Assembly: GCA_017536965.1 (NCBI GenBank)
Contig: JAFWCK010000126.1
Location: 709-64,708 of the forward strand
Direction: 5' to 3'
Length of the DNA: 64,000 nt
Source of the DNA: Lachnospiraceae bacterium
Lineage (GTDB): Bacteria > Bacillota > Clostridia > Lachnospirales > Lachnospiraceae
Shown here: piece by piece, positions 3,863-43,041 of the stretch
Layout of the letters: each line of letters opens with the position of its first letter
How positions within the stretch are numbered: position 1 is the stretch's first letter
Program-made: the position numbers and the translations under genes
Notes under the pieces: generated by a model
The model's input: only the letters and a program-made list of their open reading frames with translations
Told to the model about the DNA's origin: nothing
Databases searched by the model: none

Positions 3863-5140
3863 TCAGATTTTCTCCAGTGCCTGCGTCAGATCTGCAATAA
3901 TATCCTCTGCGCTTTCCAATCCTACTGAGAAACGGATCAGATCTGGTGCAACGCCTGCTTCTTTCAGCTGCTCATCTGCCATCTGCCGATGTGTATGGCT
4001 GGCTGGATGCAGCAGACAGGTATGTGAATCCGATACATGCGTCTCGATGTTTGCCAGCTTCAGTGCATCCATAAATTTAATAGCATCTTCTCTGCTGCCC
4101 TTCACGCCAAAACACAAAACACCACAGGTCCCATTTGGCATATATTTTTCAGCCAGAGCATGTTCCGGATCATCTTCCAGTCCCGGATATTTCACCCAGG
4201 CCACCTTCTCATGCTGTTTTAAGAAGTTTGCAACCTTATAGGCGCTTTCACAGTGCTGTTTCATTCGAACGTAGAGAGATTCCAGACCAAGATTCAGATA
4301 AAACGCATTCTGTGGAGACTGTACCGCTCCGAAATCCCGCATCAAATGTGCAACTGCTTTTGAAATATAAGCATTTTTACCGAATTTTTCAGCGTAGACG
4401 ATCCCATGGTAGGATTCATCCGGTGTACACAGTCCCGGATATTTCTCTGCATGCGCCATCCAGTCAAAATTGCCGCTGTCAACGATCACTCCGCCAACCG
4501 TAGCAGCATGTCCATCCATGTATTTGGTCGTAGAATGTACAACAATATCCGCACCGAATTCAAACGGACGGCAGTTGACCGGTGTCGCAAACGTATTATC
4601 AATGATCAGCGGAACCCCATGGTTATGAGCAAGCTGCGCAAACTTATCAAAATCAAGAACATTGACGGTCGGGTTTGTCAGGGTCTCACCAAACAGGCAC
4701 TTGGTATTCGGACGGAAATATTTTTCTAATTCCTCATACGGCAGCGTCTGATCAACAAACGTACACTCGATGCCCATTTTTTTCATCGTCGTACCAAACA
4801 GGTTAAACGTGCCTCCATAGATACTCTGGCTGGCGATAAAGTGATCCCCTGCTTCGCAGATATTAAATACTGCAAAGAAGTTAGCTGCCTGTCCGCTGGA
4901 TGTCAGCACAGCAGCAACTCCACCTTCCAGTTCACAGATCTTCTTTGCCACATAATCGCATGTTGGATTAGCCAGACGGGTATAAAAATAGCCTTCTTCC
5001 TCCAGATCAAACAGTCTTCCCATAAAATCACTATCGTCGTACTTAAAGGTCGTACTCTGAATGATCGGCATCTGTCTAGGGTCACCGTTCCCGGCATAAT
5101 AACCGGACTGCACGCAAGTTGTCTCAATATGTTTTTCCAT
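3863..5140 (-). CDS. metY: O-acetylhomoserine/O-acetylserine sulfhydrylase (PLP-dependent Cys/Met metabolism family)
   Basis: 425 aa. N-terminal TTCVQSGY...IQSTTF and PLP-lysine motif HSTTKYMDGH. Confidence 0.8.
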   Translation of the reverse strand: MEKHIETTCVQSGYYAGNGDPRQMPIIQSTTFKYDDSDFMGRLFDLEEEGYFYTRLANPTCDYVAKKICELEGGVAAVLTSSGQAANFFAVFNICEAGDHFIASQSIYGGTFNLFGTTMKKMGIECTFVDQTLPYEELEKYFRPNTKCLFGETLTNPTVNVLDFDKFAQLAHNHGVPLIIDNTFATPVNCRPFEFGADIVVHSTTKYMDGHAATVGGVIVDSGNFDWMAHAEKYPGLCTPDESYHGIVYAEKFGKNAYISKAVAHLMRDFGAVQSPQNAFYLNLGLESLYVRMKQHCESAYKVANFLKQHEKVAWVKYPGLEDDPEHALAEKYMPNGTCGVLCFGVKGSREDAIKFMDALKLANIETHVSDSHTCLLHPASHTHRQMADEQLKEAGVAPDLIRFSVGLESAEDIIADLTQALEKI

Positions 5141-5316
5141 TATTATTACCTCTGAATGTTCTTACTTTTCCTTAATAATGTATTAAAGCATGTATGTTAA
5201 GACTATTCAATATTTATTTTCTGACGCTTTCGGTTGACAAAGGAATGCGCAGGTGCTATGTTGATTTTGTCGAAAATATCTATTACTTGTTTTGCTTTTT
5301 AATCAAAGGAGGCATC

Positions 5317-6189
5317 ATGGATACAGAGAAATATAAGATCCTGATCAAAACGATTCAAACCGGCAGTTTAAGTGTTGCGGCAGAAGAACTCGGCTATACG
5401 CCATCCGGTGTCAGCAGAGCGATTTCTTCACTGGAAGAAGAAGCAGATATCATTCTTCTTAACCGGACACACTCAGGTGTTACCCCAACCAAAGAATGCG
5501 AGGAGCTGCTTCCAGCCATCATCAAGATCGTCCGTCAGGAAGAAGAGTTTAACCAGATGGCATCCCAGTTAAAAGGACTGGAAAAAGGAGAGATCGTAAT
5601 CGGTACAGCCTATAACAACTTCTATCCGCAGCTCTCCAAAACCATCTATAATTTCACCCGTAAATATCCGGACATCACAGTAAGTATCGTGGAAGGAACA
5701 TCCAGCAGTCTGGTAAAAATGCTGGAAAACAATGCAGCAGATTTCTGTATCATCAGCAAACGAAAAGGCACCTATCACTGGGTCCATCTGCTGGAAGATG
5801 AATTAGTTGCCTGGGTTTCCAAGAACAGCCTATATGCAGGGAGAGAATACTTTGATATCCGTGATTTTGAGAAAGAACCTTTTATCGATGTCTACACCGG
5901 AATGGAAACAGATAATTCTATGCTCTTTGAAGAAAAGAAGATCCGTCCGAATACCAAATACCGTACAAGAGAACCATATTCTGCTTATGCAATGGTGGAA
6001 GCAGGCCTTGGTGTCACATTGATGAACAAGATCTGGCTGCAGTCCATGGGAGACGGTGTTGTCGCTCTCCCCCTGAATCCGCCGCAAATGATCAACATTG
6101 GCATTGCCATGCAGTCGGAAGAGAACGCTTCTCCGGCTGCAAAACGGTTCATTCAGTTCACTTCTGAACATCCGTTTCTGGCGGACTAA
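5317..6189 (+). CDS. LysR family transcriptional regulator, divergent from metY
   Basis: ORF 5194..6189. I prefer ATG 5317 because it is preceded by AAGGAGG. HTH segment SLSVAAEELGYTPSGVSRAISSLEE. Confidence 0.8.
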   Translation: MDTEKYKILIKTIQTGSLSVAAEELGYTPSGVSRAISSLEEEADIILLNRTHSGVTPTKECEELLPAIIKIVRQEEEFNQMASQLKGLEKGEIVIGTAYNNFYPQLSKTIYNFTRKYPDITVSIVEGTSSSLVKMLENNAADFCIISKRKGTYHWVHLLEDELVAWVSKNSLYAGREYFDIRDFEKEPFIDVYTGMETDNSMLFEEKKIRPNTKYRTREPYSAYAMVEAGLGVTLMNKIWLQSMGDGVVALPLNPPQMINIGIAMQSEENASPAAKRFIQFTSEHPFLAD

Positions 6190-33731: not shown

Positions 33732-34031
33732 TTACTCGATCGTCAGGATCTCGTTAAAACCGGTCACCTCGAAGATCTCCATGATGGTATCATTGACATG
33801 GATCACTTTCATGGTTCCCTGATTGTTAATGATTTTCTGTGCAGAAAGCAATACTCTAAGGCCTGCAGAAGAGATATAATCCAGTTTTTCAAAATCCAGA
33901 ACCAGATTAGTTGTCTCTACTAATGCCTCCTGAAGGGATGCCTCCAACTCTGGCGCTGTAACGGTATCCAGTCTCCCCTCCAGCTGGTAAAGAATGGAAT
34001 CTTTTTCCTGTGTTTTCTGAATATTCAGCAT
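33732..34031 (-). CDS. STAS-domain anti-sigma-factor antagonist (SpoIIAA/RsbV-like)
   Basis: 99 aa; LDYISSAGLRVLL phosphorylatable-Ser motif. Confidence 0.85.
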   Translation of the reverse strand: MLNIQKTQEKDSILYQLEGRLDTVTAPELEASLQEALVETTNLVLDFEKLDYISSAGLRVLLSAQKIINNQGTMKVIHVNDTIMEIFEVTGFNEILTIE

Positions 34032-34109
34032 AGTTTTCTCACTTTCTTAAATGCATTCTTACGTGTTTTTATTATGAAGATACAAGTTTTATTTGTCCAG
34101 TATTTTTGA

Positions 34110-34147
34110 AGATAGCGGAAACCCTGTTCCATGGATTTCCGCTATCT
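34110..34147. terminator. 12-bp-stem hairpin just 3' of tRNA-Leu(UAG)
   Basis: AGATAGCGGAAA-N14-TTTCCGCTATCT; no clean U-tract on the minus strand. Confidence 0.45.
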
Positions 34148-34150
34148 TTG

Positions 34151-34231
34151 TGCGAGTGACAGGACTTGAACCTGCACGGAAAGTCCACCAGATCCTAAGT
34201 CTGGCGCGTCTGCCAGTTCCGCCACACTCGC
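34151..34231 (-). tRNA. tRNA-Leu (anticodon TAG)
   Basis: The reverse complement folds as GCGAGTG acceptor, GCGGAACTGGCAGACGC D-arm, CCAGA-CTTAGGA-TCTGG anticodon arm, long variable arm, GCAGGTTCAAGTCCTGT T-arm, and CACTCGC-A. Confidence 0.9.
34209..34231. repeat. attL core (equals tRNA-Leu nt 1-23)
   Basis: Identical 23-mer at 41569-41591. Confidence 0.85.
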
Positions 34232-34257
34232 TTTGTAAAGCATTGTCGCTGTTTGTG

Positions 34258-34285
34258 ATTATATCTGAAAACCTTGATATTTCAA
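34258..34285 (-). promoter_or_regulatory. Sigma-A-like promoter inside the element, reading into tRNA-Leu(UAG)
   Basis: Minus strand TTGAAA (34285-34280) - 16 nt - TATAAT (34263-34258), about 27 nt upstream of the tRNA 5' end. Confidence 0.6.
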
Positions 34286-34346
34286 GCAAAATCACGCAAG
34301 TTCTTTTTCGTTTCTCTCTGTCTTGATTTATTACACTTTACCTTTT

Positions 34347-34389
34347 TACCTCAAAAATTGAGGTAAATTTTGAGGTAAAAATTGAGGTA
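34347..34389. repeat. Cluster of four TTGAGGTA octamers (one inverted), candidate integrase arm-type sites
   Basis: TACCTCAA 34347-34354; TTGAGGTA at 34359, 34370 and 34382. The same ATTGAGGTAAAAATTGAGGTA occurs at 41486-41506. Confidence 0.7.
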
Positions 34390-35562
34390 CTAGACCGCAA
34401 AGCTGATCTTGGACAGCTCTTCGTGCTTTGTATTCGGCATAACGTGTGCATATAAATCCATTGTCATTTTTAATGTGCTATGTCCTAACAGAGCTTTTAA
34501 GGTGTTCGGCTGCATACCCTGTTCAATACACCGGGTAGCGAATGTGTCCCGGAATCCATGTACTGTGAACGGAGCGAAGAATCCTTTTTCCTTTTCATTG
34601 ATCTTTGAGATTATATGCTCCAAACAGGCATCAACGGAATTGTAATGAGCCAGCGTTCCTTTTGTACTCGGAAAGACAATAGCGTTACTCGATCCGAACA
34701 GCATTGAATTTTTCTCTTTCTGATCCAGCAGAATCTTTTTGAGATCATCCGTCAGAGGGATAGTCCTGTTGCTGCTGCCTGTTTTCGGGGAATCTGACAA
34801 ACTATATTCTTTGTTTGAAACCTTTGAAACGGTTTTCCCGATGCGGATTTCATTTCTGTTGAAATCCACATCAAACCAAGTGAGGGCTGCTGCCTCTCCG
34901 ATCCGACACCCGGTAATAAGCAGAAATCGAAACAGATTATAGTAATAACTGCCCTCTGCGTTTTTCATCAGCAGCTTTGTTTCTTCAACCGTCAATGCTC
35001 TGTGATTTGTGAGAGCTGCTTTCGGCTTTTCAGATTTCAAAGTCTTTATGCCGTTGCATGGATTATAGTTGATGATCCTGTCATTAATTGCACTATTAAG
35101 AATCTGCTTGAGCAATCTTGTCACCCGGTTGATTGTGTCAGCCGTGAGGGTGATCTTTTCTCCGTTCTTGTCCGTTGCAAGTTCACCTTTCTTGTTCTTG
35201 CGATACTCTTTCTTCATGGCTGTTTGCATTTGCAGCACATCCATTTTTGAAATAGTGACAATCTGCCGTTTTCCTAAATACTTTTCAAGGTGTTGCCAAG
35301 ATTTCTTATAGCTGTATATTGTAGAGGTCTTAACCTCTTTCGCCTGTTCCTCAATCCAAAAGGAATAGTATTTTTCCAGCGTGATCTTGTGATTGTCAAT
35401 GTGCATACGATTCTTTAAGCGTTCCAGCAACTCGTCTTTTTTCTCTTCACATTCTGTCTGTGTATGTCCGTATACGAAATGCCGGACACCCTCAAAAGTA
35501 AAGGCTAATCTGTATAGCTGCTTTCCTCGATCGTAATAGAATCCTTTAGGTAATCTTTTCAT
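34390..35562 (-). CDS. int: Tyrosine recombinase (phage-type integrase)
   Basis: 390 aa; C-terminal catalytic blocks GCRIGEAAAL (Arg), HGFRDTFATR (H-x-x-R), LGHSTLKMTMDLYAHV (His...Tyr). Confidence 0.9.
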   Translation of the reverse strand: MKRLPKGFYYDRGKQLYRLAFTFEGVRHFVYGHTQTECEEKKDELLERLKNRMHIDNHKITLEKYYSFWIEEQAKEVKTSTIYSYKKSWQHLEKYLGKRQIVTISKMDVLQMQTAMKKEYRKNKKGELATDKNGEKITLTADTINRVTRLLKQILNSAINDRIINYNPCNGIKTLKSEKPKAALTNHRALTVEETKLLMKNAEGSYYYNLFRFLLITGCRIGEAAALTWFDVDFNRNEIRIGKTVSKVSNKEYSLSDSPKTGSSNRTIPLTDDLKKILLDQKEKNSMLFGSSNAIVFPSTKGTLAHYNSVDACLEHIISKINEKEKGFFAPFTVHGFRDTFATRCIEQGMQPNTLKALLGHSTLKMTMDLYAHVMPNTKHEELSKISFAV

Positions 35563-35676
35563 ATCTGCTACCCCCTTTGCTATGCGGATAGCAGAAACGT
35601 AATAACCACGATTCGGATTATATACTTTTTTTCTGTTATCTGCAAGTATTATCTTTTATTTTTGTTTGTGTTGTGG

Positions 35677-35939
35677 TATAATATTTTATTTTTCTTTATT
35701 ATGAAATTTCCTTTTGAAAGCCCCTAATTCGCCATTACAGGGCTTTTAGGGTCTTTGTGAAGGTTTTATTGTTTTTGGATTAATTGTCTGAAATCGCTTG
35801 CAATACGGCTGTAATTTGATAAGATAAAGACGGAAACACCGTTTCCAGCTGGCAAGTCTCTGACCCCGGCAACATCGTTTGGTCGGTGGGCGGTGTTTCG
35901 CTGACGGTTTTAGGCTACCCCCTTTGACCGTCTTTTTTT
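35677..35939 (+). ncRNA. Candidate about 250-nt non-coding transcript (extended -10 promoter to intrinsic terminator) between int and the upstream ORF
   Basis: TGGTATAAT at 35674-35682. Hairpins AAAGCCC...GGGCTTT and GAAACACCG...CGGTGTTTC. Terminator GACGGT-N18-ACCGTC plus T7 (35903-35939). No ORF longer than 8 codons. Confidence 0.4.
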
Positions 35940-35954
35940 ATGATCCGGCAGCAG

Positions 35955-36251
35955 TTATTTGATCTGCTGCCGTTCGTTTGCCTCAATGCCATAATCCCTT
36001 TTCATGGCTACTTTCCAGAGTTCATACTCAAGGGCTGCTATTGCTCTTGCTGCTGCCTCGGGTGTTTTAGCTCTGATTGTGTATTTCTCGTCACCAATCT
36101 CTGAATATGTCTCAAGTTCCAGCGTGATAGACACGGCATTTTCTTTTTTGCTCTTTCCGCTTGCAATACCGCCTTTTCGTCCCATTTCTGAAAGCTGTTC
36201 TTTCGTCCGCTGGCTGTTCGGAATCAGATTTTTTAAACTGTTCGGATTCAT
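35955..36251 (-). CDS. Hypothetical protein with N-terminal basic KGG-type segment (NPNSLKNL...GRKGGIASGKSKKE)
   Basis: ORF track with an AGGGA RBS; the N-terminal motif is seen in many phage/plasmid small proteins (recollection only). Confidence 0.5.
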   Translation of the reverse strand: MNPNSLKNLIPNSQRTKEQLSEMGRKGGIASGKSKKENAVSITLELETYSEIGDEKYTIRAKTPEAAARAIAALEYELWKVAMKRDYGIEANERQQIK

Positions 36252-36352
36252 ATTTCCCTTTCTGCTTCTTTATTCTCTCGTGCGTGCGTGCGTGAAAGCA
36301 TCCTTTAACTCTTTGAATCGGGGTGAATCGGGCTTTGAATTGCTTGCCGTTT

Positions 36353-36748
36353 TTAGGGGTCGGAAATCTTGCATATTGCTTTTTCAATATTATTCTTGAT
36401 CAACTGCAATCTATGTAGCTCCGTCCCGGGTGGAATGTCCCCGGCAACAATCGACATATCCTTTTTTATTTGTGGCAGCAGCTCCCGATCCCCTGTCATA
36501 AGCCCGATACACTCTACAGCTTTCAACAAAAGTACCTTTGTCTCTTTCCCTTGCTGTATGCCTTTTACAAGCTCCGTTCTGCACTCCCCAGCTCTTTTGA
36601 TATTCTCTTGGTATTCTTTATAGGCTTTCCGTATCTGCTGCCGTTCTGCCTGTTCCGCAAACAAGGAATTATCCGGCAAGCTCTCCGGCAGCTTATTTGA
36701 TCTGCTGCCGGGAGCAATCTTTTCAAGGGCTGTGAAATCTATCTGCAT
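36353..36748 (-). CDS. Hypothetical protein
   Basis: ORF track; AAGAGG RBS; the start overlaps the stop of the helicase gene. Confidence 0.5.
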   Translation of the reverse strand: MQIDFTALEKIAPGSRSNKLPESLPDNSLFAEQAERQQIRKAYKEYQENIKRAGECRTELVKGIQQGKETKVLLLKAVECIGLMTGDRELLPQIKKDMSIVAGDIPPGTELHRLQLIKNNIEKAICKISDP

Positions 36749-37926
36749 CGGTCAGCCTCTTTAAAATAATTAAACCTCGGATAGTACTGATACTTGATCC
36801 GGTCTCCTGTTCTGCCGTTTCTGTTTTTCAAAATAACCGCCTCGATTTCCCTAGGGTCTTTGCTCTTTGCCTCGGTAGGATCAAAATCAGCTTCACCAAT
36901 TCCGGCAAGGTCAAGCCCGATTACTACATCCGATCCATACTCAAGGCTGCCGGATTCTTTGAAACCGCTGAAATCAGCTTTCGTTTTATATCCGGCTCTG
37001 TTGAAACTGCTGATTGCAATTACAGGGCTTTTAAAGTCTCTGCTGATCCGCTTCAGTTCCAATACCGCCTTATCAATATTCTGCTTGTCGCTTGCCTTAA
37101 TATCGTAAGGGGCTAAAATCTGCACATAGTCAACTACCACAACCGGGATATTACCTAGAATTCTTGTGTGCCTTTCAACCGCCTCTCTGATCTGATTAAC
37201 CCCTATATCTCCTATCCCCTCATAAATGAAAATGTGTTCTGCGTATGTGCCGTACTCCTTTATAGCCGATTTGATCAACTGCCGTTCCTGTTCGGAATAA
37301 TTCTTATATCGTGATCCGTCTGTGATCCCTCTTGCTGTTTTTGCGTTATCCATTCCGGCTTTGAGCATTGTTAATCTCGAAACAGATTTTGAGATTAAGT
37401 CCTCTTTCGGCATTTCCATGGCAAATATGATCACATCATTTCCCTGTGCTGCGATCTGATCTGCCATCTGCATGATTAGCGTTGTCTTTCCCAGCGAAGT
37501 AATTGCCCCCACAACATACAGACCGCTATACAATCCACCGTCCAGCACTTGATCAAGTGTCGGAAATCCCGATCTGATCACCGGGGAATTCATTGAAGCA
37601 GCTATACCGTCAACAAACTCTTGTAAATATCCGGCAGCAGATTCTTTTTGCAACTGCTGCCGTTCTTCCTCAATCGTTTTCGCCTCGGTCTTTTCAACGT
37701 ACTCTTTCAAACTATTCTTTGTTTCCTCAATGCTTTGCCCTTTGCGTTCCGCATCAGTCAATATTTCAATCACGCTTGCCCCGGTCAGCCCTGTTCGGCT
37801 GGCATAGTCTGTGATTTCTTCCAATGTCAGCCCGAAGTGATCAATACCATAGGCTATAATTGCCCCGGTACTCGTCAAATCGTTCTGTTCTTCCCTCAAT
37901 ACCTCTTGTACTTCTTTTAGTTCCAT
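36739..37926 (-). CDS. DnaB-like replicative helicase (RecA-fold C-terminal domain with a unique N-terminus)
   Basis: Walker A GAITSLGKTT, Walker B VVVDYVQIL, SRDFKSPVIAISSFNR. Confidence 0.8.
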   Translation of the reverse strand: MELKEVQEVLREEQNDLTSTGAIIAYGIDHFGLTLEEITDYASRTGLTGASVIEILTDAERKGQSIEETKNSLKEYVEKTEAKTIEEERQQLQKESAAGYLQEFVDGIAASMNSPVIRSGFPTLDQVLDGGLYSGLYVVGAITSLGKTTLIMQMADQIAAQGNDVIIFAMEMPKEDLISKSVSRLTMLKAGMDNAKTARGITDGSRYKNYSEQERQLIKSAIKEYGTYAEHIFIYEGIGDIGVNQIREAVERHTRILGNIPVVVVDYVQILAPYDIKASDKQNIDKAVLELKRISRDFKSPVIAISSFNRAGYKTKADFSGFKESGSLEYGSDVVIGLDLAGIGEADFDPTEAKSKDPREIEAVILKNRNGRTGDRIKYQYYPRFNYFKEADRCR

Positions 37927-38138
37927 TATTTCTCCTGTCTCATATTCCAGCGTTCAACAACTCTCCGGCTTACCACATCAAGAGTATTAATCGGATTGTT
38001 GCCAACAGCCAGCCAATCGTTATTAATGCACCGGGTACACTTCACTTTGACAATGTGTCGGGGTTTTCCCTCGCTGTATTCTTCGATCAGCTCTGCCGGG
38101 CTGCCACAATATTTACAATTCGATAATTTCATATTCAA
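37926..38138 (-). CDS. Lar-family-like zinc-ribbon protein (restriction alleviation-like)
   Basis: 70 aa; CKYCG...CTRC plus C-terminal VVERWNMR, resembling the Lar CxxC...CxxC...AWNRR pattern. Confidence 0.5.
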   Translation of the reverse strand: MNMKLSNCKYCGSPAELIEEYSEGKPRHIVKVKCTRCINNDWLAVGNNPINTLDVVSRRVVERWNMRQEK

Positions 38139-38210
38139 CGATATTTCCTCATTTGTCTTTCTGATCCATCAAAGGGGAATCGCCTCTCTCAAAAGAGCGA
38201 TTTCCCCCTT

Positions 38211-38262
38211 TCTAGAAATTTCTAAAAATTTCTAAAAATTAAGAAAAATTTCTAACCTCGGA
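38211..38262. repeat. AT-rich tract with four AAATTTCTA(A/G) repeats, candidate DNA-unwinding element
   Basis: TCTAGAAATTTCTAAAAATTTCTAAAAATTAAGAAAAATTTCTAACC. Confidence 0.55.
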
Positions 38263-38301
38263 AACCCTAGGGGGACAAGGCTTTGCAGAATCGCCACCCG
38301 A

Positions 38302-38383
38302 AGTAATACGGAGCTTTAGCGGTAGTAATACGGAGCTTTAGCGGTAGTAATACGGAGCTTTAGCGGTAGTAATACGGAGCTTT
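38302..38383. repeat. Iterons: 22-bp direct repeat AGTAATACGGAGCTTTAGCGGT x 3.7
   Basis: Perfect copies at 38302, 38324 and 38346, plus a 16-bp partial copy at 38368 that abuts the Rep-like stop codon. Confidence 0.9.
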
Positions 38384-39259
38384 TTACTCTCCCGGCATCT
38401 CAAAAATCACAAGTCTTTCAGCAAAGGAATGATAGTTTTCGCCCGGGTCAATCGGCTTGTCATATCTCCAGTCATTGATCACCCCGGCTCTTTTGATCAC
38501 ATCTAAATTTGCTTCAAAAGGTTTTCTGATCCTGTCTCGCCAACTGTCACGCTGTTTTAAAACGTTCTCGTAATCCGGCAAGCTGGACACATTGAGCAGC
38601 GTTCCCACCTTTAACCGATCCGATGATCCTTTACCTCTGTTGCCCTTGTTCCCGGAATGGGTGATGATCTTTGAGGCTATAGCATAGGCTGTTTGATTCT
38701 TTCCGCTGATCCGCATCAGCTCTTTTGGAATTTTCACTAAAGGCTTTTTATGAAGATACTCCGCAAAAGTCTGTCCGAATCTCATTGTGATCCTGTTCCG
38801 TTTAACCTCTCCTACACTATCCAGCAGATTGACACTCTGCCACCTTTTGCCGTCATCCCACGAAAGCTGGACAGCCTGTAAGGTTTTCAAGTCCTGTCTA
38901 ATCTGCTCGTGTGCGTGATCTCTCCGGCTCTTTGTGCTTATGTCATATCCCACAAGGCAGCAGTACTCATCAAAAGGAATCGTGACAGGGCGGTTGATCG
39001 TCTTGCTTTTTCCGAATCCGTTTTGAATCGTGAAAGCAGCAAGCCCGGCAATCAGCAGATTATTTGTCCCAACGCCGAGACCGCTTTTCAATCCGAATTT
39101 ATGCAACCCGAAATCCACTCCGAGCTTATTAATCCTAACTTCGCCTGTGACAGAATCGGCAGCAGCCCTTTTGCTAGTGACTGCTGCCATTGCATCAATA
39201 GGCTTTGCGTGATGAATGGTCAGCACTTCCGGCATTGTTCCGGGCTTTTCATTCTTCAT
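38384..39259 (-). CDS. Putative replication initiator (Rep-like, winged-helix type)
   Basis: ORF 38384..39355. I prefer ATG 39259 (MKNEKPG), which overlaps the Xis-like stop by 11 nt. Adjacent to the iterons. Similarity to Rep proteins is only pattern-level (NQTAYAIASKIITH). Confidence 0.45.
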   Translation of the reverse strand: MKNEKPGTMPEVLTIHHAKPIDAMAAVTSKRAAADSVTGEVRINKLGVDFGLHKFGLKSGLGVGTNNLLIAGLAAFTIQNGFGKSKTINRPVTIPFDEYCCLVGYDISTKSRRDHAHEQIRQDLKTLQAVQLSWDDGKRWQSVNLLDSVGEVKRNRITMRFGQTFAEYLHKKPLVKIPKELMRISGKNQTAYAIASKIITHSGNKGNRGKGSSDRLKVGTLLNVSSLPDYENVLKQRDSWRDRIRKPFEANLDVIKRAGVINDWRYDKPIDPGENYHSFAERLVIFEMPGE

Positions 39260-39470
39260 CTGCTGCCTCAAGCTGTACGGTATCGTTTTCGGAAAAGTAC
39301 TCGTCAATTTTCCGAAGATCATATACACATCTTTTCCCAATCCGTTTTTCCGCACCGATCTTTACGGCTGTTACTTTTGCTGTTTGAGTTCCTACTCCCA
39401 TATAATCGGCAGCAGCTCTCAAGTTCACAAAGCGTTTGTCATTGTTTGCGTCAACATTTCTAAATTTCAT
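39249..39470 (-). CDS. Excisionase/AlpA-like small HTH DNA-binding protein
   Basis: 73 aa; FVNLRAAADYMGVGTQTAKV HTH; first gene of the leftward operon. Confidence 0.55.
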   Translation of the reverse strand: MKFRNVDANNDKRFVNLRAAADYMGVGTQTAKVTAVKIGAEKRIGKRCVYDLRKIDEYFSENDTVQLEAADEE

Positions 39471-39497
39471 TATTCTTTACCTCGTTTTTTTATATTT

Positions 39498-39542
39498 TGA
39501 AGTACTTCATGTTGACAGAATACAGTCCATAAGGTGTATAAT
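39498..39542. promoter_or_regulatory. Divergent switch region: 12-bp palindrome TGAAGTACTTCA plus a rightward TTGACA / TGTATAAT promoter
   Basis: Palindrome 39498-39509; TTGACA 39512-39517; TGTATAAT 39535-39542. Confidence 0.55.
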
Positions 39543-39587
39543 CAATTTGTCAATAGATTAAATTTTAGTGAGGTATATAAAAGAAAT

Positions 39588-40268
39588 ATGTCTAATTCAT
39601 TTTACACATTCACGCAAGAAGAATTGAAAACGATCAGCAACAGATTACAAGCAAAAATGCAAGCTGCCGGAATATCGCAGCGACAGCTTGCGAATAAGAG
39701 CAAGGTCTCTCGTGCCAATATCAACGACATGATAAACGGACATTATTCTTCTGACGGTAGCAACGAGAAAGTGTTCCGCAATCACAAGCCGGAAACATAC
39801 AAAAAAATATGTGACGGTTTTGATATATTAGGCGAAGTATGCAGCATGGAATATCTACTCGGAGAGGTGAGGCAATCGACACACGATCTACAATTCATCT
39901 GTGATTACACCGGGCTATCAGAGGAAGCTGTGAGAAAACTGCACGAACAGAAATCAGACCCTCTAAATCTGCTTCAACTACAAGTTTTATCTACCGCTAT
40001 TGCAAAAACCGATCTGTCTGCTCGTATGGCTGATTATTGGCAGCTACAGCCAGCAAGCGAATCAGCTAATATAACATTGGAATACCGAGAAAAAAATATC
40101 ATCAATCACACCATTACTACCGGGGCAACAGAAAGCAAACATACTGATCCGAGTATCAGAATCAATGGGGTGGACATAGGCTTGCAGACCGTCAAAGAAG
40201 TTGTTCTAAAGGAAATCCAAAAAGAATTAGAGCTTATGATTAAAGAGGATCAGAAGAAACCTCGCTGA
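39588..40268 (+). CDS. XRE-family HTH regulator with an uncharacterised C-terminal domain of about 150 aa (candidate element repressor)
   Basis: ORF 39534..40268, but its first ATG overlaps the -10 box. ATG 39588 follows GTGAGGT. HTH ISQRQLANKSKVSRANINDMINGH. Confidence 0.65.
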   Translation: MSNSFYTFTQEELKTISNRLQAKMQAAGISQRQLANKSKVSRANINDMINGHYSSDGSNEKVFRNHKPETYKKICDGFDILGEVCSMEYLLGEVRQSTHDLQFICDYTGLSEEAVRKLHEQKSDPLNLLQLQVLSTAIAKTDLSARMADYWQLQPASESANITLEYREKNIINHTITTGATESKHTDPSIRINGVDIGLQTVKEVVLKEIQKELELMIKEDQKKPR

Positions 40269-40292
40269 TTATATTTGACATTTGTTCACCTT

Positions 40293-40380
40293 GATTTTCC
40301 TTGTAAAATTTTTTCGGGGTCGTGTTTTTTCTGAAAATATTTTTCGGGGGTAATTTTCCCTTGAAAAATTTTTTGAGGGT
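40293..40380. repeat. Three tandem direct repeats of about 29 bp (TTG-AAAAT-TTTTCGGGGT type)
   Basis: Units at 40293-40323, 40324-40351 and 40352-40380. Confidence 0.8.
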
Positions 40381-40634
40381 CAAGGTACCATGGCATGTTT
40401 TTTTGCCTGCCTCTCACGTGCAATATACTCTTCCCCTTTTCCTCGGGGGTTCCCTACCGTTTCTCTTTTTCCTTTTTGGAGCAGCTTCACAAGGTGTTAC
40501 CGGGGTTTCACATACTCCATTTAAGTAAAGCAAAGGTATATTTCAAATCATAAAAAGGAGACAACACAAAAAGACAAACAAGAACAACACCACAGACCAC
40601 CAACAATATAGATCTAGAATGATGTAAACAGTAT

Positions 40635-40675
40635 AAAAAAACAGTCTCTTTTTAAGAAAAAAGACTGCTTTTTCA
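40635..40675. terminator. Bidirectional intrinsic terminator inside the element
   Basis: CAGTCTCTTTTT-AAG-AAAAAAGACTG with an A-run before it and CTTTTT after it. Confidence 0.65.
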
Positions 40676-41049
40676 TATAAAACAGCTGCAAAAAAGGTCA
40701 AAAACGATGCAATTTAATGCTGATTTGTGTCTATTTTATTCTATTTTCATGGCTCCTACGAATCGGTTAATTGTGTTTGATACGGTTAAGTATGATAGAG
40801 AATCTTTCCCTGTTTCTGTAAATGTTGGACACGGTATAGTCGACAGCAAGTATCATATCTACGATATAACAGAAAGCATAAAAAATACCGCCGTCTTGGA
40901 GCGGGTCGGAGACTTGCGCTCTGATAGCGATATTTCTTTAAATATTTTTTATCACAAGCAGTAGAAAATAGCAAGCTTTCTCGTTCCTTCAATTCGACGG
41001 GCAAACAACTACAATGGTTAAATCATTTGCAAAAATCGTACGTTGCAAT

Positions 41050-41250
41050 TTACTGCTGATTTGTGTCTATTTTATTCTTGTTTTTTTCGTAGCTCCTGCC
41101 AGAATTGAAGCCGACTACAAAACCGTAATCGATCAGTCTGAACGGTGTCCCTTCTGCCAGAGAATAGATGGCGCTCATATCCTTCGCGGTCAGCATTCTC
41201 GATTCAGGTATTTTTGTTTCGTCAACGATCTTCTTCACGTTTCTATTCAT
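41050..41250 (-). CDS. Hypothetical small protein (66 aa)
   Basis: ORF track; the start overlaps the stop of the upstream 63-aa ORF by 8 nt. Confidence 0.45.
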   Translation of the reverse strand: MNRNVKKIVDETKIPESRMLTAKDMSAIYSLAEGTPFRLIDYGFVVGFNSGRSYEKNKNKIDTNQQ

Positions 41251-41434
41251 GGTCTACCTCTCCTGTGATCCATTGTCTCTGCTGCATTTCCTGTATTCCT
41301 GCTTTTATTCCGGCTTCGTCCTTTGCAATTATCAATATCTGCCCTGTAATCAGATCAACGTGAAACCGATTCTCTGCTCCGGCATCAATAACTGCTGTTA
41401 CATTCTCTCCCATGTTCTGAATCTTTTCAACCAT
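41243..41434 (-). CDS. Hypothetical small protein (63 aa)
   Basis: ORF track; strong AAAGGAG RBS 9 nt upstream of the ATG. Confidence 0.5.
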   Translation of the reverse strand: MVEKIQNMGENVTAVIDAGAENRFHVDLITGQILIIAKDEAGIKAGIQEMQQRQWITGEVDHE

Positions 41435-41568
41435 GTTCTTATTCTCCTTTCAGTATGCCTCGATCTGATAACTTTTTCAGACCCGATTGAGGTAAAAATT
41501 GAGGTAATTGTTTGAACAAGACATAAAAAATGCTGGAAACTCAAGGTCTCCAGCATTATTATTACGTT

Positions 41569-41591
41569 TCTGCCAGTTCCGCCACACTCGC
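41569..41591. repeat. attR core: orphan 5' fragment of tRNA-Leu(UAG)
   Basis: Identical to 34209-34231. Lies 4 nt downstream of the stop of the 41596..43041 gene. Sequence diverges from the tRNA after nt 23. Confidence 0.85.
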
Positions 41592-41595
41592 CTTT

Positions 41596-43041
41596 TTATT
41601 CCTGTCCGGAGCTGGAAACATCCGGTGTTGGCACTGTCTCTGATTCCGGTTCAGTTTCCGGCTGTGCATCCCGGGAAAGAGTATCTACAAATACTACATT
41701 TCCTTCCAGGGCTTCCATTGCCTTATCATATTTGAAATCCAGGTTTGTGAATAAATACAGCCATTCTTCCCCGGACTGCTCCTTGAACTCTTCTAATGTA
41801 TAAGTATCGTTATATCCGCTTCTTGCCATATACTCTACGATTGCCTGATCTACTTCCTCGTCTGTATAGGTCAATTCTTTATCCTTAAAGATCTGATCGA
41901 TCAGCATGATCAGGTTCAGATAATAATGTGCTTCATCCAATGCATAGTCCTCTGCAGAGGTATAGCCATACATTTGTGCATAGGTATCTGCATCATAACC
42001 ATACATTGCAGCATTGTATTCCAGAGACTTTTTCGTATAATTCACCAGATTTGCTTCCTGCTCAGGATCATAGGTCTTTACAACTTGTTTCGCCTGCAGG
42101 TCCTGCATCATAGCTTCATGCAGATAAAAATGATAGATGTAATCACGGATATATTCTTTCAGTTCATCTACTGTATTCAGCTGCTTCGGCAGGTAGTTGT
42201 AAGAATAGTCTTTTACAAAATCATCATTGCACTCCGGCGTTTCATTCTTGGTTCTGGATTTGATCGTTATCTCAAACACAGCAGGTTTTCCAGCCAGATC
42301 TTTATTATCATAATCTTCCGGGAAGACGACGTTAACATTAACGGTCGATCCGATTTTCTGTCCAACAAGGCCTTCTTCAAATCCGGCAATATATCTGCCA
42401 GCTCCGACTGTACAGGATTGATTTTCTGCTGTTCCGCCAGCAAATTCTTCTCCTGTTGCAGTCAGTTTACCTTTAAAATCTATTGTCAGAAGATCTCCTT
42501 CTGCAACCGTTCCTTCAGTTTCCTGGATCTGTTTGGTTTGAGACTGCACCAGGCTCTGCAGATAACTGTCAACTGTTTCATCTGTTACTTCCACAGCAGA
42601 ATTCAGAACCTCGATGCGGGAGTAATCTGCCATTTCCATCTCTGCTTCGACCGGTTTTTCCGGGAATTTGATCCAGTTCAATTTATAAGCAACAAAACCA
42701 AGGCAAGCCAGAACGATCACTGCGCAGACAACGATGACGATCACATTCGTCTTGTCCAGTTTCTTTTTCTTTTTGATAATTGGCTTTTCCGCTGTTTTAC
42801 CAGTTGCTTGTTCCAGTTTCTCGGATGCTTCTTCTACTTTCTCAGCTGCCTCTTCCACTTTTTCTTCTGCAGCTTCTACTGCCGCTTCCGCTTCCTGAAC
42901 AGCTTCCTCAGCATTTTCCACTGTTTCTTCCACAGTTTCTTTTGCCTCAGCAACCGTCTCTTCAGCAGTTTCTGCTGCCTCAGCGACCGTCTCTTCTGCG
43001 GCATCTGTCATGTTTTCCAAGTCTTTTTTCATTTCTTCCAT
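41596..43041 (-). CDS. Membrane-anchored trigger-factor-like protein (acidic N-terminal repeats, TM helix, FKBP-type PPIase and TF C-terminal-like region)
   Basis: 481 aa; AEETVAEA-type acidic repeats; TM VIVIVVCAVIVLACLGFVAY; PPIase block GDLLTIDFKGKL...FAGG...IAGFEEGLVG. Confidence 0.6.
   Translation of the reverse strand: MEEMKKDLENMTDAAEETVAEAAETAEETVAEAKETVEETVENAEEAVQEAEAAVEAAEEKVEEAAEKVEEASEKLEQATGKTAEKPIIKKKKKLDKTNVIVIVVCAVIVLACLGFVAYKLNWIKFPEKPVEAEMEMADYSRIEVLNSAVEVTDETVDSYLQSLVQSQTKQIQETEGTVAEGDLLTIDFKGKLTATGEEFAGGTAENQSCTVGAGRYIAGFEEGLVGQKIGSTVNVNVVFPEDYDNKDLAGKPAVFEITIKSRTKNETPECNDDFVKDYSYNYLPKQLNTVDELKEYIRDYIYHFYLHEAMMQDLQAKQVVKTYDPEQEANLVNYTKKSLEYNAAMYGYDADTYAQMYGYTSAEDYALDEAHYYLNLIMLIDQIFKDKELTYTDEEVDQAIVEYMARSGYNDTYTLEEFKEQSGEEWLYLFTNLDFKYDKAMEALEGNVVFVDTLSRDAQPETEPESETVPTPDVSSSGQE

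Follow-up and report, generated by a model that had tools for sequence, protein, structure and literature searches.

An active integrative self-replicating episome in a rumen Lachnospiraceae chromosome, probably a phage satellite, with a phage-type integration switch and a plasmid-type replication origin

Several kinds of small mobile element are the closest described systems to the one presented here. PICI/SaPI elements are taken as defined in PMC10085698, PICIs having a median size of 9.5 kb. Capsid-less integrative elements that are packaged as concatemers have been documented, and VEIMEs are defined by their physical recovery from virions as concatemers (PMC9618062). In K. pneumoniae, the arg2 and leu5 islands integrate at the 5' end/D-loop of the tRNA (bioRxiv 10.1101/2020.11.02.365908). 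Small theta plasmids of the pSMQ308 type and streptococcal "satellite prophages" also bear comparison. Here, we analyse an element in the chromosome of an uncultured rumen Lachnospiraceae, contained in a 64-kb window (the whole stretch of DNA analysed, 64,000 nucleotides). As a whole, it is best explained as an active integrative self-replicating episome that is probably a phage satellite, a reading to which we give a probability of about 0.6.

The original prediction that an exact 23-bp direct repeat brackets 7.36 kb is borne out. The repeat, TCTGCCAGTTCCGCCACACTCGC, has two copies, at 34209-34231 and 41569-41591, and these identical copies at the two element ends are its only occurrences in the whole 64-kb window even with up to 3 mismatches allowed (matches in 0/100 shuffles), which speaks against a general intergenic repeat. 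It had been taken for the 3' part of the tRNA, but it equals the 5' part, nt 1-23, of tRNA-Leu(UAG). Since the intact tRNA (ARAGORN; Rfam tRNA, 57 bits; sequence) lies on the minus strand at 34150-34231, the element therefore occupies 34232-41591 (7,360 bp), upstream of the tRNA. The attL core (34209-34231, minus strand) is the first 23 nt of the tRNA, derived from the element side of the crossover, while the attR core (41569-41591) is the displaced original 5' 23 nt. Between this core and the stop codon of the host gene for an FKBP-type isomerase (41596-43041) are 4 nt, the distance at which the native tRNA follows that gene. Arm-type repeats are present on both sides: in the P arm on the integrase side (34343-34389), TTGAGGTA occurs four times at intervals of 12 bp, once inverted, and in the P' arm on the far side (41487-41507), TTGAGGTAA occurs twice. 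The window contains 5 exact copies of TTGAGGTAA, all at the two element ends, versus 0.49 expected, and the attP layout of a circular relative (L120) matches that of the window element. Moreover, relatives of the integrase at 59-63% identity likewise lie just upstream of tRNA-Leu(UAG), and this integrase clade targets the 5' end of that tRNA repeatedly. As in the arg2 and leu5 islands, the recombination site takes in the 5' acceptor strand and the D-arm, with the island upstream of the tRNA. The phylum, the integrase clade and the element type are different, and, unlike in those islands, the tRNA here follows a host gene at a distance of 4 nt, and a replacement promoter and terminator appear to come with the element.

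Three states occur in nature: the site without the element, the integrated element and the attP circle. An empty-site allele with an uninterrupted tRNA-Leu and a circular junction had been proposed as things to look for, and public assemblies contain both: the empty site (L008), with the attR point joined straight to the tRNA body, and the circular attP junction in two independent assemblies (L011 and L114), L114 being a full-length permuted contig of the circular form. The integrated form is present in L001 and L012-L014. In SRR31077496, the unitig of the flank (L009) runs to 34231 and that of the element (L019) begins at 34202, with a k-1 overlap, implying that attL and attB reads coexist in that dataset. 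The element is real and still mobile, and all the originally proposed checks that could be run supported the original interpretation. Note also that the circular contigs are compatible with an ordinary plasmid state as much as with an induced state, which counts against the satellite reading.

The tyrosine integrase gene int (34390-35562, minus strand, 390 aa; PF00589 1e-27, phrog_1 7e-70) is the last gene of the leftward array, which begins with a gene for a small DUF6462 HTH protein (39249-39470, minus strand; PF20063 4e-5, phrog_66 0.003). In the prophage-like loci L122 and L123, homologues of the latter directly precede int, and homologues are found in every sibling element, making DUF6462 a candidate excisionase. 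Across a divergent control region (39471-39587) lies the gene for an XRE-family regulator with an N-terminal HTH (39588-40268, plus strand, 226 aa; HTH_3 8e-6, phrog_8, phrog_3). The control region contains a perfect 12-bp palindrome, TGAAGTACTTCA, at 39498-39509, a putative operator, and a promoter-like site, TTGACA-19 nt-TATAAT, pointed at the XRE gene. An XRE-type regulator facing the leftward genes across a palindrome had been proposed, and this arrangement stands. Profile searches found no S24 peptidase (autocleavage) domain in the regulator, and its C-terminal ~150 aa have no family match. The leftward genes had also been read as one operon. They are co-directional, but int is preceded by a 392-nt gap (35563-35954, minus strand) that contains a hairpin resembling a terminator (35847-35831) and a site resembling a promoter (35705-35678), both consensus matches only, so that a single operon is not established. 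It is also noted that, according to gene calls, the start codons of Rep, XRE and the Lar-like gene are probably internal to the longest ORFs.

The replicon had been likened to an iteron theta plasmid rather than to a SaPI pri-rep module, and the present results agree with this. Rep (38384-39259, minus strand, 291 aa) is a WH1-WH2 iteron-binding initiator with a Rep3_N match above the Pfam cut-off (4e-5). Searching its AlphaFold2 model (pLDDT 90.9) with Foldseek against PDB returned iteron-binding replication initiators for all of the top 40 matches, at probability 1.0, mostly RepE54 but also Pi, a Rep-DUE complex and RctB; the modelled fold thus shows a RepE/Pi-fold initiator, and it adjoins perfect iterons. 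The origin predicted from the sequence (38175-38383) comprises a hairpin (38175-38208), an A/T-rich 10-bp x 4.7 repeat adjoining the iterons (38209-38255) and, directly after the rep stop codon, 22-bp iterons with 100% matches (38302-38383). The 22-bp unit and its place next to an A/T-rich tract are as predicted, while the copy number is 3.7 rather than 3.5. The assemblies break at the origin, and the iteron number differs between them. Further along the array are a 70-aa zinc-ribbon protein, weakly Lar-like (37926-38138, minus strand; Pfam 0.003, below the cut-off; phrog_599 8e-6), a DnaB_C-type replicative helicase (36739-37926, minus strand, 395 aa; PF03796 4e-35, phrog_19 2e-37) and orf131 (36353-36748, minus strand), a conserved partner gene by synteny. 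Profile and fold searches, as had been proposed, thus confirm the integrase, the DnaB-like helicase, the iteron-type Rep and the XRE regulator. The helicase is without a primase domain, and its alignment with primase-helicases of 640-720 aa falls in their C-terminal two thirds; it descends from such fusions, the ancestral primase domain having been lost. Homologues of orf131 follow the helicase in pSMQ308, in L022, in the sibling element L119 and in 17 GTDB loci, with no Pfam, PHROG or PDB match for orf131. In one assembly (L016), orf131 is split in two.

The module of helicase, orf131 and Rep is common to circular 7-12 kb plasmids including pSMQ308, also occurs in streptococcal chromosomal elements carrying DUF3173-int modules, and hardly ever occurs in phages. 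By lineage, the replicon belongs with plasmids/IMEs and not with phages, which counts against the satellite reading. With the pSMQ308-type plasmids (S. thermophilus NC_005322 and 7-12 kb circular contigs of Clostridia and streptococci), the window element shares the helicase (54-61% identity), an orf131-like gene, the Rep family and a related gene order. By contrast, these plasmids have the primase fused to the helicase, a ParA-RHH partition pair, an HTH_17 protein, an XerC-like recombinase of ~310 aa and a large unknown protein. None of these is in the window element, which thus lacks partition genes and primase; in their place it has a phage-type integrase of 390 aa, an XRE repressor and att sites in the chromosome. 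The sibling L119 keeps XRE, xis, Rep, the primase-less helicase, orf131 and int at 30-59% identity, and the core genes of the window element are all intact.

At the tRNA side, a promoter candidate, TTGAAA-16 nt-TATAAT (34258-34285, minus strand), is the best sigma-70 match (11/12) within 34000-41800, with its -10 ending ~26 nt upstream of the tRNA 5' end, and it lies inside the block GCGTGAT.TT.CTTG..A..TCAA.GTTTT, which is conserved in siblings L115, L119 and L120. We infer that a near-consensus promoter borne by the element faces the rebuilt tRNA. Likewise, a strong terminator-like hairpin with a 12-bp stem and a T-run at the far end (41529-41557, minus strand), with an analogous hairpin at the equivalent place in L120, appears positioned to block read-through from the host FKBP gene into the element. 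These promoter and terminator roles, like those of operator and excisionase, are proposed from sequence pattern and synteny only. Between the XRE gene and this hairpin are three tandem copies of a 30-bp unit beyond the XRE stop codon (40294-40380), the flanking segment of which aligns with L114 at 98% up to 40477, and a variable segment (40478-41206) with no family matches. Within the latter are orf85 (plus strand, 40707-40964), the 3' portion of orf66 and two direct copies of a 44-bp sequence (40704-40747 and 41040-41083), and circular variants have ~370 bp of different sequence in its place. The overlapping orf66 (41050-41250) and orf63 (41243-41434), both on the minus strand, are retained in the variants (in L011 at 97% and 68% identity, respectively), again with no family matches; the cargo is about 1 kb of such small ORFs.

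The absence of capsid, terminase-large, relaxase and T4SS genes noted before agrees with our profile searches of the element, which found no capsid, TerL, relaxase or T4SS gene and no PADLOC defence match. The mobilisation route had been considered not evident, and there is now a lead in orf98 (35955-36251, minus strand, 98 aa; phrog_2412 1.7e-8), a candidate packaging or hijack factor. Its residues 7-39 match an N-terminal motif shared by phage proteins at the small-terminase position, with 63% identity to Javan488_0023 across 32 aa, and an ORF with this motif lies directly upstream of TerL, overlapping or abutting, in 8/8 phage contexts tested. Short ORFs with the motif occur in small satellite-like elements with scaffold and major head genes, and the records Javan106 and Javan248, deposited as "Streptococcus satellite phage", include a phrog_2412 family member. 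It is probable, then, that the element is a phage satellite, needing a helper phage to spread. A repressor in which no S24 domain was found, the absence of relaxase and T4SS genes, and the precedent of capsid-less integrative elements packaged as concatemers also favour this. Against this reading, the similarity covers only ~33 residues, overlapping a sub-threshold KGG motif; Javan106 has a separately annotated small terminase alongside its phrog_2412 protein; and L119 is without orf98. Pfam does not name the phage proteins with the motif as terminases, and the AlphaFold2 model of orf98 is too poor for use. No helper phage was identified and no prophage is evident in the 64-kb window; searches of IMG/VR and the phage collection turned up neither the element nor its Rep or integrase.

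Like PICI/SaPI elements, the window element has an end integrase, a divergent repressor, an xis-like regulator and its own replication module followed by an iteron origin, is without tail or lysis genes, has a candidate for a small-terminase-related gene and is near the median size. Unlike them, it has a RepE-fold initiator and a primase-less DnaB_C helicase rather than pri-rep, has no capsid-morphogenesis gene, carries int as the last gene of a long array rather than paired with the repressor, and is linked to small terminases by no more than a motif at the N-terminus of a 98-aa protein. Under the logic of SatelliteFinder, it would at most be classed as "Type C", having three core components. 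Javan106, Javan248 and the small head-gene-bearing elements L108, L213 and L218 resemble it in that their 6-13 kb include a phrog_2412 protein or one with the orf98 motif, a repressor and a replication module, but they have either scaffold and major head genes or a loader of DnaI type, together with other replicases, and no further genes in common with it. The VEIMEs are likewise integrase-bearing and without capsid genes, some with plasmid-like RepA and ParA and some with small-terminase homologues; however, they are known from virions and the window element from sequence alone, and the hosts and gene families differ.

Based on our model, the XRE repressor would keep the leftward array off, and since no autocleavage domain was found in it, induction would probably be by an outside factor. 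On relief, DUF6462 (Xis-like) and Int would recombine attL with attR using the TTGAGGTA arm sites on both core sides, and the excised circle would replicate from the element origin. There, Rep on the iterons may open the adjacent A/T-rich tract and load the element's own helicase, perhaps with orf131; the host would do the priming, since the ancestral primase domain has been lost. In the integrated state, the element promoter would drive the rebuilt tRNA and the far-end terminator would stop host read-through. The element has no transfer genes; packaging by a helper phage, probably as concatemers, is the most likely transfer route, at roughly even odds, and orf98 would be the hijack or packaging factor in it.

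The strongest competitor, possible but distinctly less probable than the satellite reading, is a phage-independent integrative plasmid that alternates between chromosomal and plasmid states and spreads by in-trans mobilisation from an unrecognised oriT, by natural transformation, by vesicles or by chance generalised transduction, orf98 having an unrelated DNA-binding role. The replication module, common to pSMQ308-like circular plasmids and streptococcal DUF3173-int elements and nearly absent from phages, is what such a plasmid would have; a circular contig of full length has been seen, a helper phage has not, and the orf98 evidence is a short motif. However, the element lacks partition genes, though free plasmid relatives keep ParA and an RHH protein, and no relaxase was found in it. 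Its switch is moreover of phage type, comprising an XRE repressor transcribed divergently, a gene like xis and an integrase gene with relatives in prophages, and the motif of phage small-terminase-position proteins recurs in small elements with head genes.

That the element is a decayed, immobile remnant of a prophage or satellite is very improbable: its small size, its lack of structural genes and the split orf131 of L016 would fit decay, but both att cores are identical, the iterons are perfect, the core genes are intact and kept in a sibling at 30-59% identity, and the attB and attP contigs, with empty and circular forms in independent samples, contradict immobility. As for ordinary chromosomal genes flanked by a repeat that is due to chance or generally intergenic, nothing beyond the prior favours this, and the 23-mer unique to the two element ends, the mobile-element gene content and the observed site polymorphism have already refuted it.

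What the present analysis adds to the original prediction is the shared helicase/orf131/Rep module, the target of the integrase clade, the putative tRNA-facing promoter and terminator and the orf98 motif. The element, which we read as probably a phage satellite, joins a phage-type integration switch to a plasmid-type replication origin.

The 64-kb window has two exact copies of the 23-mer TCTGCCAGTTCCGCCACACTCGC (34209-34231 and 41569-41591) and no further copy at up to three mismatches. A chance repeat is rejected, since the 23-mer is confined to the two element ends and 0 of 100 shuffles matched it. A tRNA-Leu(UAG) gene, the sole match in the Rfam search, was placed at 34150-34231 on the minus strand by both ARAGORN and Rfam, and the repeat therefore corresponds to nucleotides 1-23 of the tRNA, i.e., the 5' acceptor strand and the D-arm. 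The element bounded in this way covers 7,360 bp (34232-41591) upstream of the tRNA, with a G+C content of 41.9% compared with 44.5% in the flanks.

The mobility of the element was examined with contigs of public assemblies that were retrieved via the neighbouring host STAS protein, and these contigs are of three kinds. One (L001) carries the whole element at 99.5% identity. Another (L008) has the empty site, with window position 34237 joined to 41569 at 97-99% identity and the tRNA followed directly by the host FKBP-type isomerase gene. The third kind comprises five contigs that end exactly at 34231. The predicted circular junction, running from the right end through the 23-bp core into the left end, was found in two further assemblies: in a 6.5-kb contig (L011), with a Rep 93% identical to that of the window, and in L114 (run SRR094437), which holds all element genes in circularly permuted order and of which both ends lie inside the iterons and overlap by 22 nt. 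With the integrated, the empty and the circular contigs, all three states of an excising element are thus seen. Moreover, the flank unitig (L009) of sample SRR31077496 stops at 34231 and its element unitig (L019) begins at 34202, giving an overlap of 30 nt, or k-1. Because such an overlap in a de Bruijn graph demands both kinds of reads, we infer from the assembly logic that attL and attB reads coexist in this sample. For the integration and excision that characterize integrative mobilizable elements (IMEs), an Int, the att sites and both the attB and attP products are therefore at hand. A search of metagenome and viral contigs for the exact attL and attP junction patterns gave none. The host is a Lachnospiraceae MAG from the ruminant gut. 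An 8.3-kb element contig (L014, GCA_017515185.1) has proteins named 'Aeriscardovia sp.' by NCBI, with the flanking host proteins named 'Lachnospiraceae bacterium'; this MAG assignment is probably a mis-binning, which is frequent with mobile DNA.

The original prediction had read the ORFs as an integrase, a DnaB-like helicase, a Rep, a Lar-like protein, an Xis-like protein and an XRE regulator, and the domain searches bore out these families, with a DnaB_C helicase and, for the Xis-like protein, a DUF6462 HTH protein. The integrase is a tyrosine recombinase (PF00589, 1e-27; phrog_1, 7e-70), the initiator is of Rep3_N type, the Lar-like zinc ribbon is a weak likeness and the XRE regulator is divergently oriented. 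No capsid, large terminase, relaxase, T4SS or known defence family was found in the element by the family searches and PADLOC. A prophage, either intact or defective, is rejected, with no structural, lysis or large-terminase genes or remnants matched in Pfam and PHROGs, and so is a relaxase-bearing IME, with no relaxase, coupling-protein or T4SS family match. At the DNA level the element has no match among phages and plasmids except a 550-bp stretch of the helicase in the plasmid pSMQ308, with none in 50,697 phage records.

Besides the core repeats, the element ends carry short repeats that are putatively recognized by the integrase. The five exact copies of TTGAGGTAA that the 64-kb window contains are all at the ends of the element, compared with 0.49 expected. 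Together with one further TTGAGGTA unit, which lacks the trailing A, they form a group of four next to int and a group of two at the opposite end, with a spacing of 12 bp. Such end-confined, regularly spaced repeats have the pattern of arm-type integrase sites, as read from the sequence. Integration into the 5' or D-loop part of a tRNA gene is rare, although it has been reported (bioRxiv 10.1101/2020.11.02.365908), and the Islander criteria for tDNA islands permit integration on the 5' side (PMC4383910). In the arrangement described by those criteria, the tDNA here is intact, the displaced 5' fragment lies upstream in the same orientation and int is adjacent.

The same site is used by relatives of the integrase. 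Those of 63% identity (L115-L118, at this very locus in related strains) and that of 59% identity (L119, another genome) lie immediately upstream of tRNA-Leu(UAG) and are co-directional with it, and a family of modular elements has its hotspot at the tRNA-Leu(UAG)/STAS site. In L115, another small element at this locus of related Lachnospiraceae strains, int is at 4147-5307 and the tRNA at 5512-5593; the XRE repressor and DUF6462 are present in the L115-L118 element, and its middle module differs (91 aa and 246 aa). The sibling in L119 (5865-11358) has an XRE regulator, xis, a Rep of 282 aa, a primase-less helicase of 396 aa, an orf131-like gene and int, and the tRNA-Leu(UAG) comes next. The 10 kb upstream gave no displaced tRNA fragment, and thus the L119 element is either longer or fixed in place. 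A more distant relative, L120, is a circular contig of 7,287 bp with a terminal overlap of 30 nt, which encodes an integrase of 54% identity together with DUF6462 and a D5_N/DUF5906 primase-helicase. Its attP layout is the same as that of the window element (arm repeats, conserved block, core, hairpin and arm repeats), with repeats and a core (GCGGATATGGCAGA) of different sequence. In the integrase relatives of 46% identity, DUF6462 is immediately upstream and int is the last gene in a long run of small genes, all in one direction, within a prophage-like region with reverse transcriptase, HNH and DUF6273 genes; it is chiefly this synteny of int and DUF6462 that supports a role of DUF6462 as the excisionase. 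The distant relatives in metagenomes (28-48% identity) are not beside tRNAs and lack the other element genes, and therefore the targeting of tRNA-Leu is limited to the close integrase clade. The element integrase was not found in IMG/VR.

The insertion may have a further consequence for the tRNA. In the empty site the tRNA starts 4 nt past the stop codon of the FKBP gene, and because of this spacing the native tRNA probably shares the transcript of that gene or is transcribed from a start inside it; the insertion splits the two. The best sigma-70 match in 34000-41800 (TTGAAA, 16 nt, TATAAT; 11/12) is on the tRNA strand at 34258-34285, with the -10 of this predicted promoter ending about 26 nt upstream of the tRNA and the -35 region falling within a block that is conserved among otherwise divergent siblings. 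The strongest terminator-like hairpin (41529-41557, with a 12-bp stem) lies just inside the far end and faces the host gene. We infer that the element may rewire the tRNA by a promoter and a terminator of its own.

Close to the far end, two repeat-rich segments are observed. Three 30-bp tandem repeats (40294-40380, consensus ATTTTCCCTTGAAAATATTTTTCGGGGGT) follow directly after the XRE stop codon, in a part of the element that aligns with L114 at 98%. The segment 40478-41206, from XRE to orf63, is replaced in the circular variants (L114:2126-2497, and L011); in the window it contains a direct repeat of 44 bp (91% identical, 336 bp apart), an additional ORF of 85 aa (40707-40964) and a different C-terminus of orf66. 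It looks like a cassette-exchange spot beside attR.

With regard to replication, the element is by its make-up a true iteron replicon, with a WH1-WH2 initiator, tandem iterons by rep and an A/T-rich region. The iterons (38302-38383; 22 bp x 3.7, 100% matches) adjoin the stop codon of rep, and beyond them lie an A/T-rich 10-bp x 4.7 repeat and a hairpin. The Rep has a Rep3_N match above the Pfam cut-off, and its relatives fall into 963 representative clusters by HMMER; a word-index search gave one cluster of 93% identity only, which the full HMMER scan shows to be a limit of sensitivity. A scan of genome contigs with the Rep alignment found nothing, and the Rep was not found in IMG/VR. The Rep profile had no match among PDB sequences, and fold comparison alone succeeded: with an AlphaFold2 model of pLDDT 90.9 and pTM 0.89 (33 aligned relatives), the top 40 PDB matches of Foldseek are all iteron-binding initiators, mostly RepE54 together with Pi, a Rep-DUE complex and RctB, at probability 1.0 and a target TM-score of about 0.6. 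Autonomous replication of the circle is consistent with the permuted circular contig L114, which agrees with it and falls short of proof. The number of exact iteron copies varies from one to three between assemblies (the window, L001, L015, L016, L020 and L114), and several contigs break there; either true variation in copy number or a collapse during assembly could account for this.

In GTDB genomes 284 relatives of the helicase were found, and those examined are primase-helicase fusions of 640-720 aa, with which the helicases of the window and L119 align solely in the linker and helicase parts, the primase domain being absent. No tRNA was found in the scan of the helicase-bearing loci. The adjoining orf131 (36353-36748) had no named family in Pfam, and its family gave nothing meaningful against PDB sequences; in L016 (3647-4042) two ORFs, of 65 aa and 58 aa, stand in its place, owing to a frameshift or a sequencing error.

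Thirteen loci of helicase relatives are contigs of 7-12 kb with terminal overlaps (L024, L026, L027, L031, L034, L037, L039, L043, L046, L048, L080, L096 and L097, to which L023, pSMQ308, is added), which suggests that they are circles; the hosts are Clostridia, streptococci and mis-binned MAGs. Several have the common order of Rep, primase-helicase, orf131-like protein, XerC-like recombinase, ParA, RHH, HTH_17, HTH and a large protein of 480-630 aa with no family match. pSMQ308 of S. thermophilus, which appears to be the only named member of this plasmid family, shares with them the Rep, primase-helicase, orf131-like, recombinase, HTH and large-unknown genes, and its six genes in PLSDB include neither ParA nor RHH. 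The window element is like the pSMQ308-like plasmids in its helicase, orf131-like and Rep families, whereas it lacks their primase-helicase fusion, ParA-RHH pair and XerC-like recombinase of about 310 aa. In streptococcal chromosomes the Rep and primase-helicase are paired with a DUF3173 protein and a 403-aa integrase. Because the replicon family has these plasmid and streptococcal relatives and is nearly absent from phages, gene comparison places the replicon in a plasmid or IME lineage, with its primase and partition functions lost and the remainder grafted onto a phage-type backbone of int, xis and repressor. In phage records the Rep and primase-helicase pair is present only in two 74-kb S. 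suis 'rum' entries (one is MN270266.1, phage phi-SsuFJZZ32_rum, 66672-69551), which may consist of a prophage with an integrative element inside it or next to it instead of a single phage.

Phage-inducible chromosomal islands (PICIs) are defined by five core components (PMC10085698), of which the element has one, the integrase. It would work like a PICI but is not to be filed as one. For the regulation module (alpA, merR or stl), the divergent XRE HTH repressor and the DUF6462 HTH protein are candidate analogues. For the primase-replicase, the RepE-fold Rep and the DnaB_C helicase, without a primase domain, are analogous in function only. Pfam and PHROGs gave no match to a head or packaging family for the capsid-morphogenesis component, and for the small terminase the candidate is orf98 (35955-36251), with a likeness confined to residues 7-39 and no match to a named terminase family.

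The element has no genes for making a particle or a mating pore, and orf98 is the sole lead on transfer. Its residues 7-39 match phrog_2412 (1.7e-8) and share 63% identity with the Javan488_0023 N-terminus, a likeness that is short and overlaps a sub-threshold KGG motif. In both streptococcal phages and all six phage-scale IMG/VR contigs tested, the motif ORF (126-169 aa) abuts or overlaps a large-terminase gene, which is the small-terminase position; Pfam gives these phage proteins no named family and no terminase, and a phrog_2412 phage protein gave nothing meaningful against PDB sequences. Short motif proteins (67-83 aa) are present beside scaffold and major head genes (phrog_422) in contigs of about 6-9 kb (L108, L213 and L218), each with a primase-helicase, with a sigma factor in L213 and L218 and a repressor in L108 and L218. 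L105 has a 138-aa motif protein with a phage replisome-organiser gene and a sigma factor, and these four contigs look like miniature capsid-forming satellites. The phrog_2412 family also has a member in the 'Streptococcus satellite phage' records Javan106 and Javan248. The AlphaFold2 model of orf98 is of unusable quality (pLDDT 59.8), and the sibling L119 lacks orf98; these points, together with the shortness of the likeness and the lack of a Pfam name, speak against helper dependence. In the XRE repressor no S24 autocleavage domain was found by domain and profile searches. In SaPIs, a non-self-cleaving repressor accompanies derepression by the helper phage.

We give a probability of roughly 0.5 to the dependence of the element on a helper phage. 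Further points against this dependence are that no helper phage is known and that the element is absent from IMG/VR, phage records and viral contigs. It might instead live independently of phages as an integrative plasmid; the small-terminase-position motif of orf98 and the finding of no relaxase genes speak against such a life, and we regard it as less likely. Capsid-less integrative elements that are packaged as concatemers, some with plasmid-like Rep genes, have been described in the sea (PMC9618062). Returning to helper dependence, we tentatively propose an undescribed family of capsid-less phage satellites of about 7 kb in rumen and gut Clostridia. Its members would share a backbone of integrase, Xis-like DUF6462 protein, repressor and a fixed attP layout at the tRNA 5' end with its own tRNA promoter and terminator, and would freely swap replicons (the window element and L119 have the iteron Rep with a helicase, L120 has a D5-type primase-helicase and L115 another module). 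They might hijack the helper by a miniature mimic of the N-terminus of its small terminase and be packaged as concatemers.

In conclusion, the element is real, active and explained well in outline as a satellite-like integrative replicon. With all three states observed, it offers a clean case from nature of a plasmid-type iteron replicon driven by a phage-type lysogeny switch, the host being an uncultured Firmicute of the rumen. It brings together the widespread, unstudied pSMQ308-like plasmids, an integrase clade that uses the rare 5'/D-arm sublocation of the tRNA, and a short motif common to phage proteins at the small-terminase position and to small satellite-like elements. For genetic work in Lachnospiraceae, the integrase, its 23-bp attB and the compact replicon might be of use as tools. 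Should helper dependence fail to be confirmed, an ordinary integrative plasmid remains. Should it be confirmed, the 98-aa protein would become a testable hijack factor and the satellite concept would reach very small capsid-less elements of gut anaerobes.
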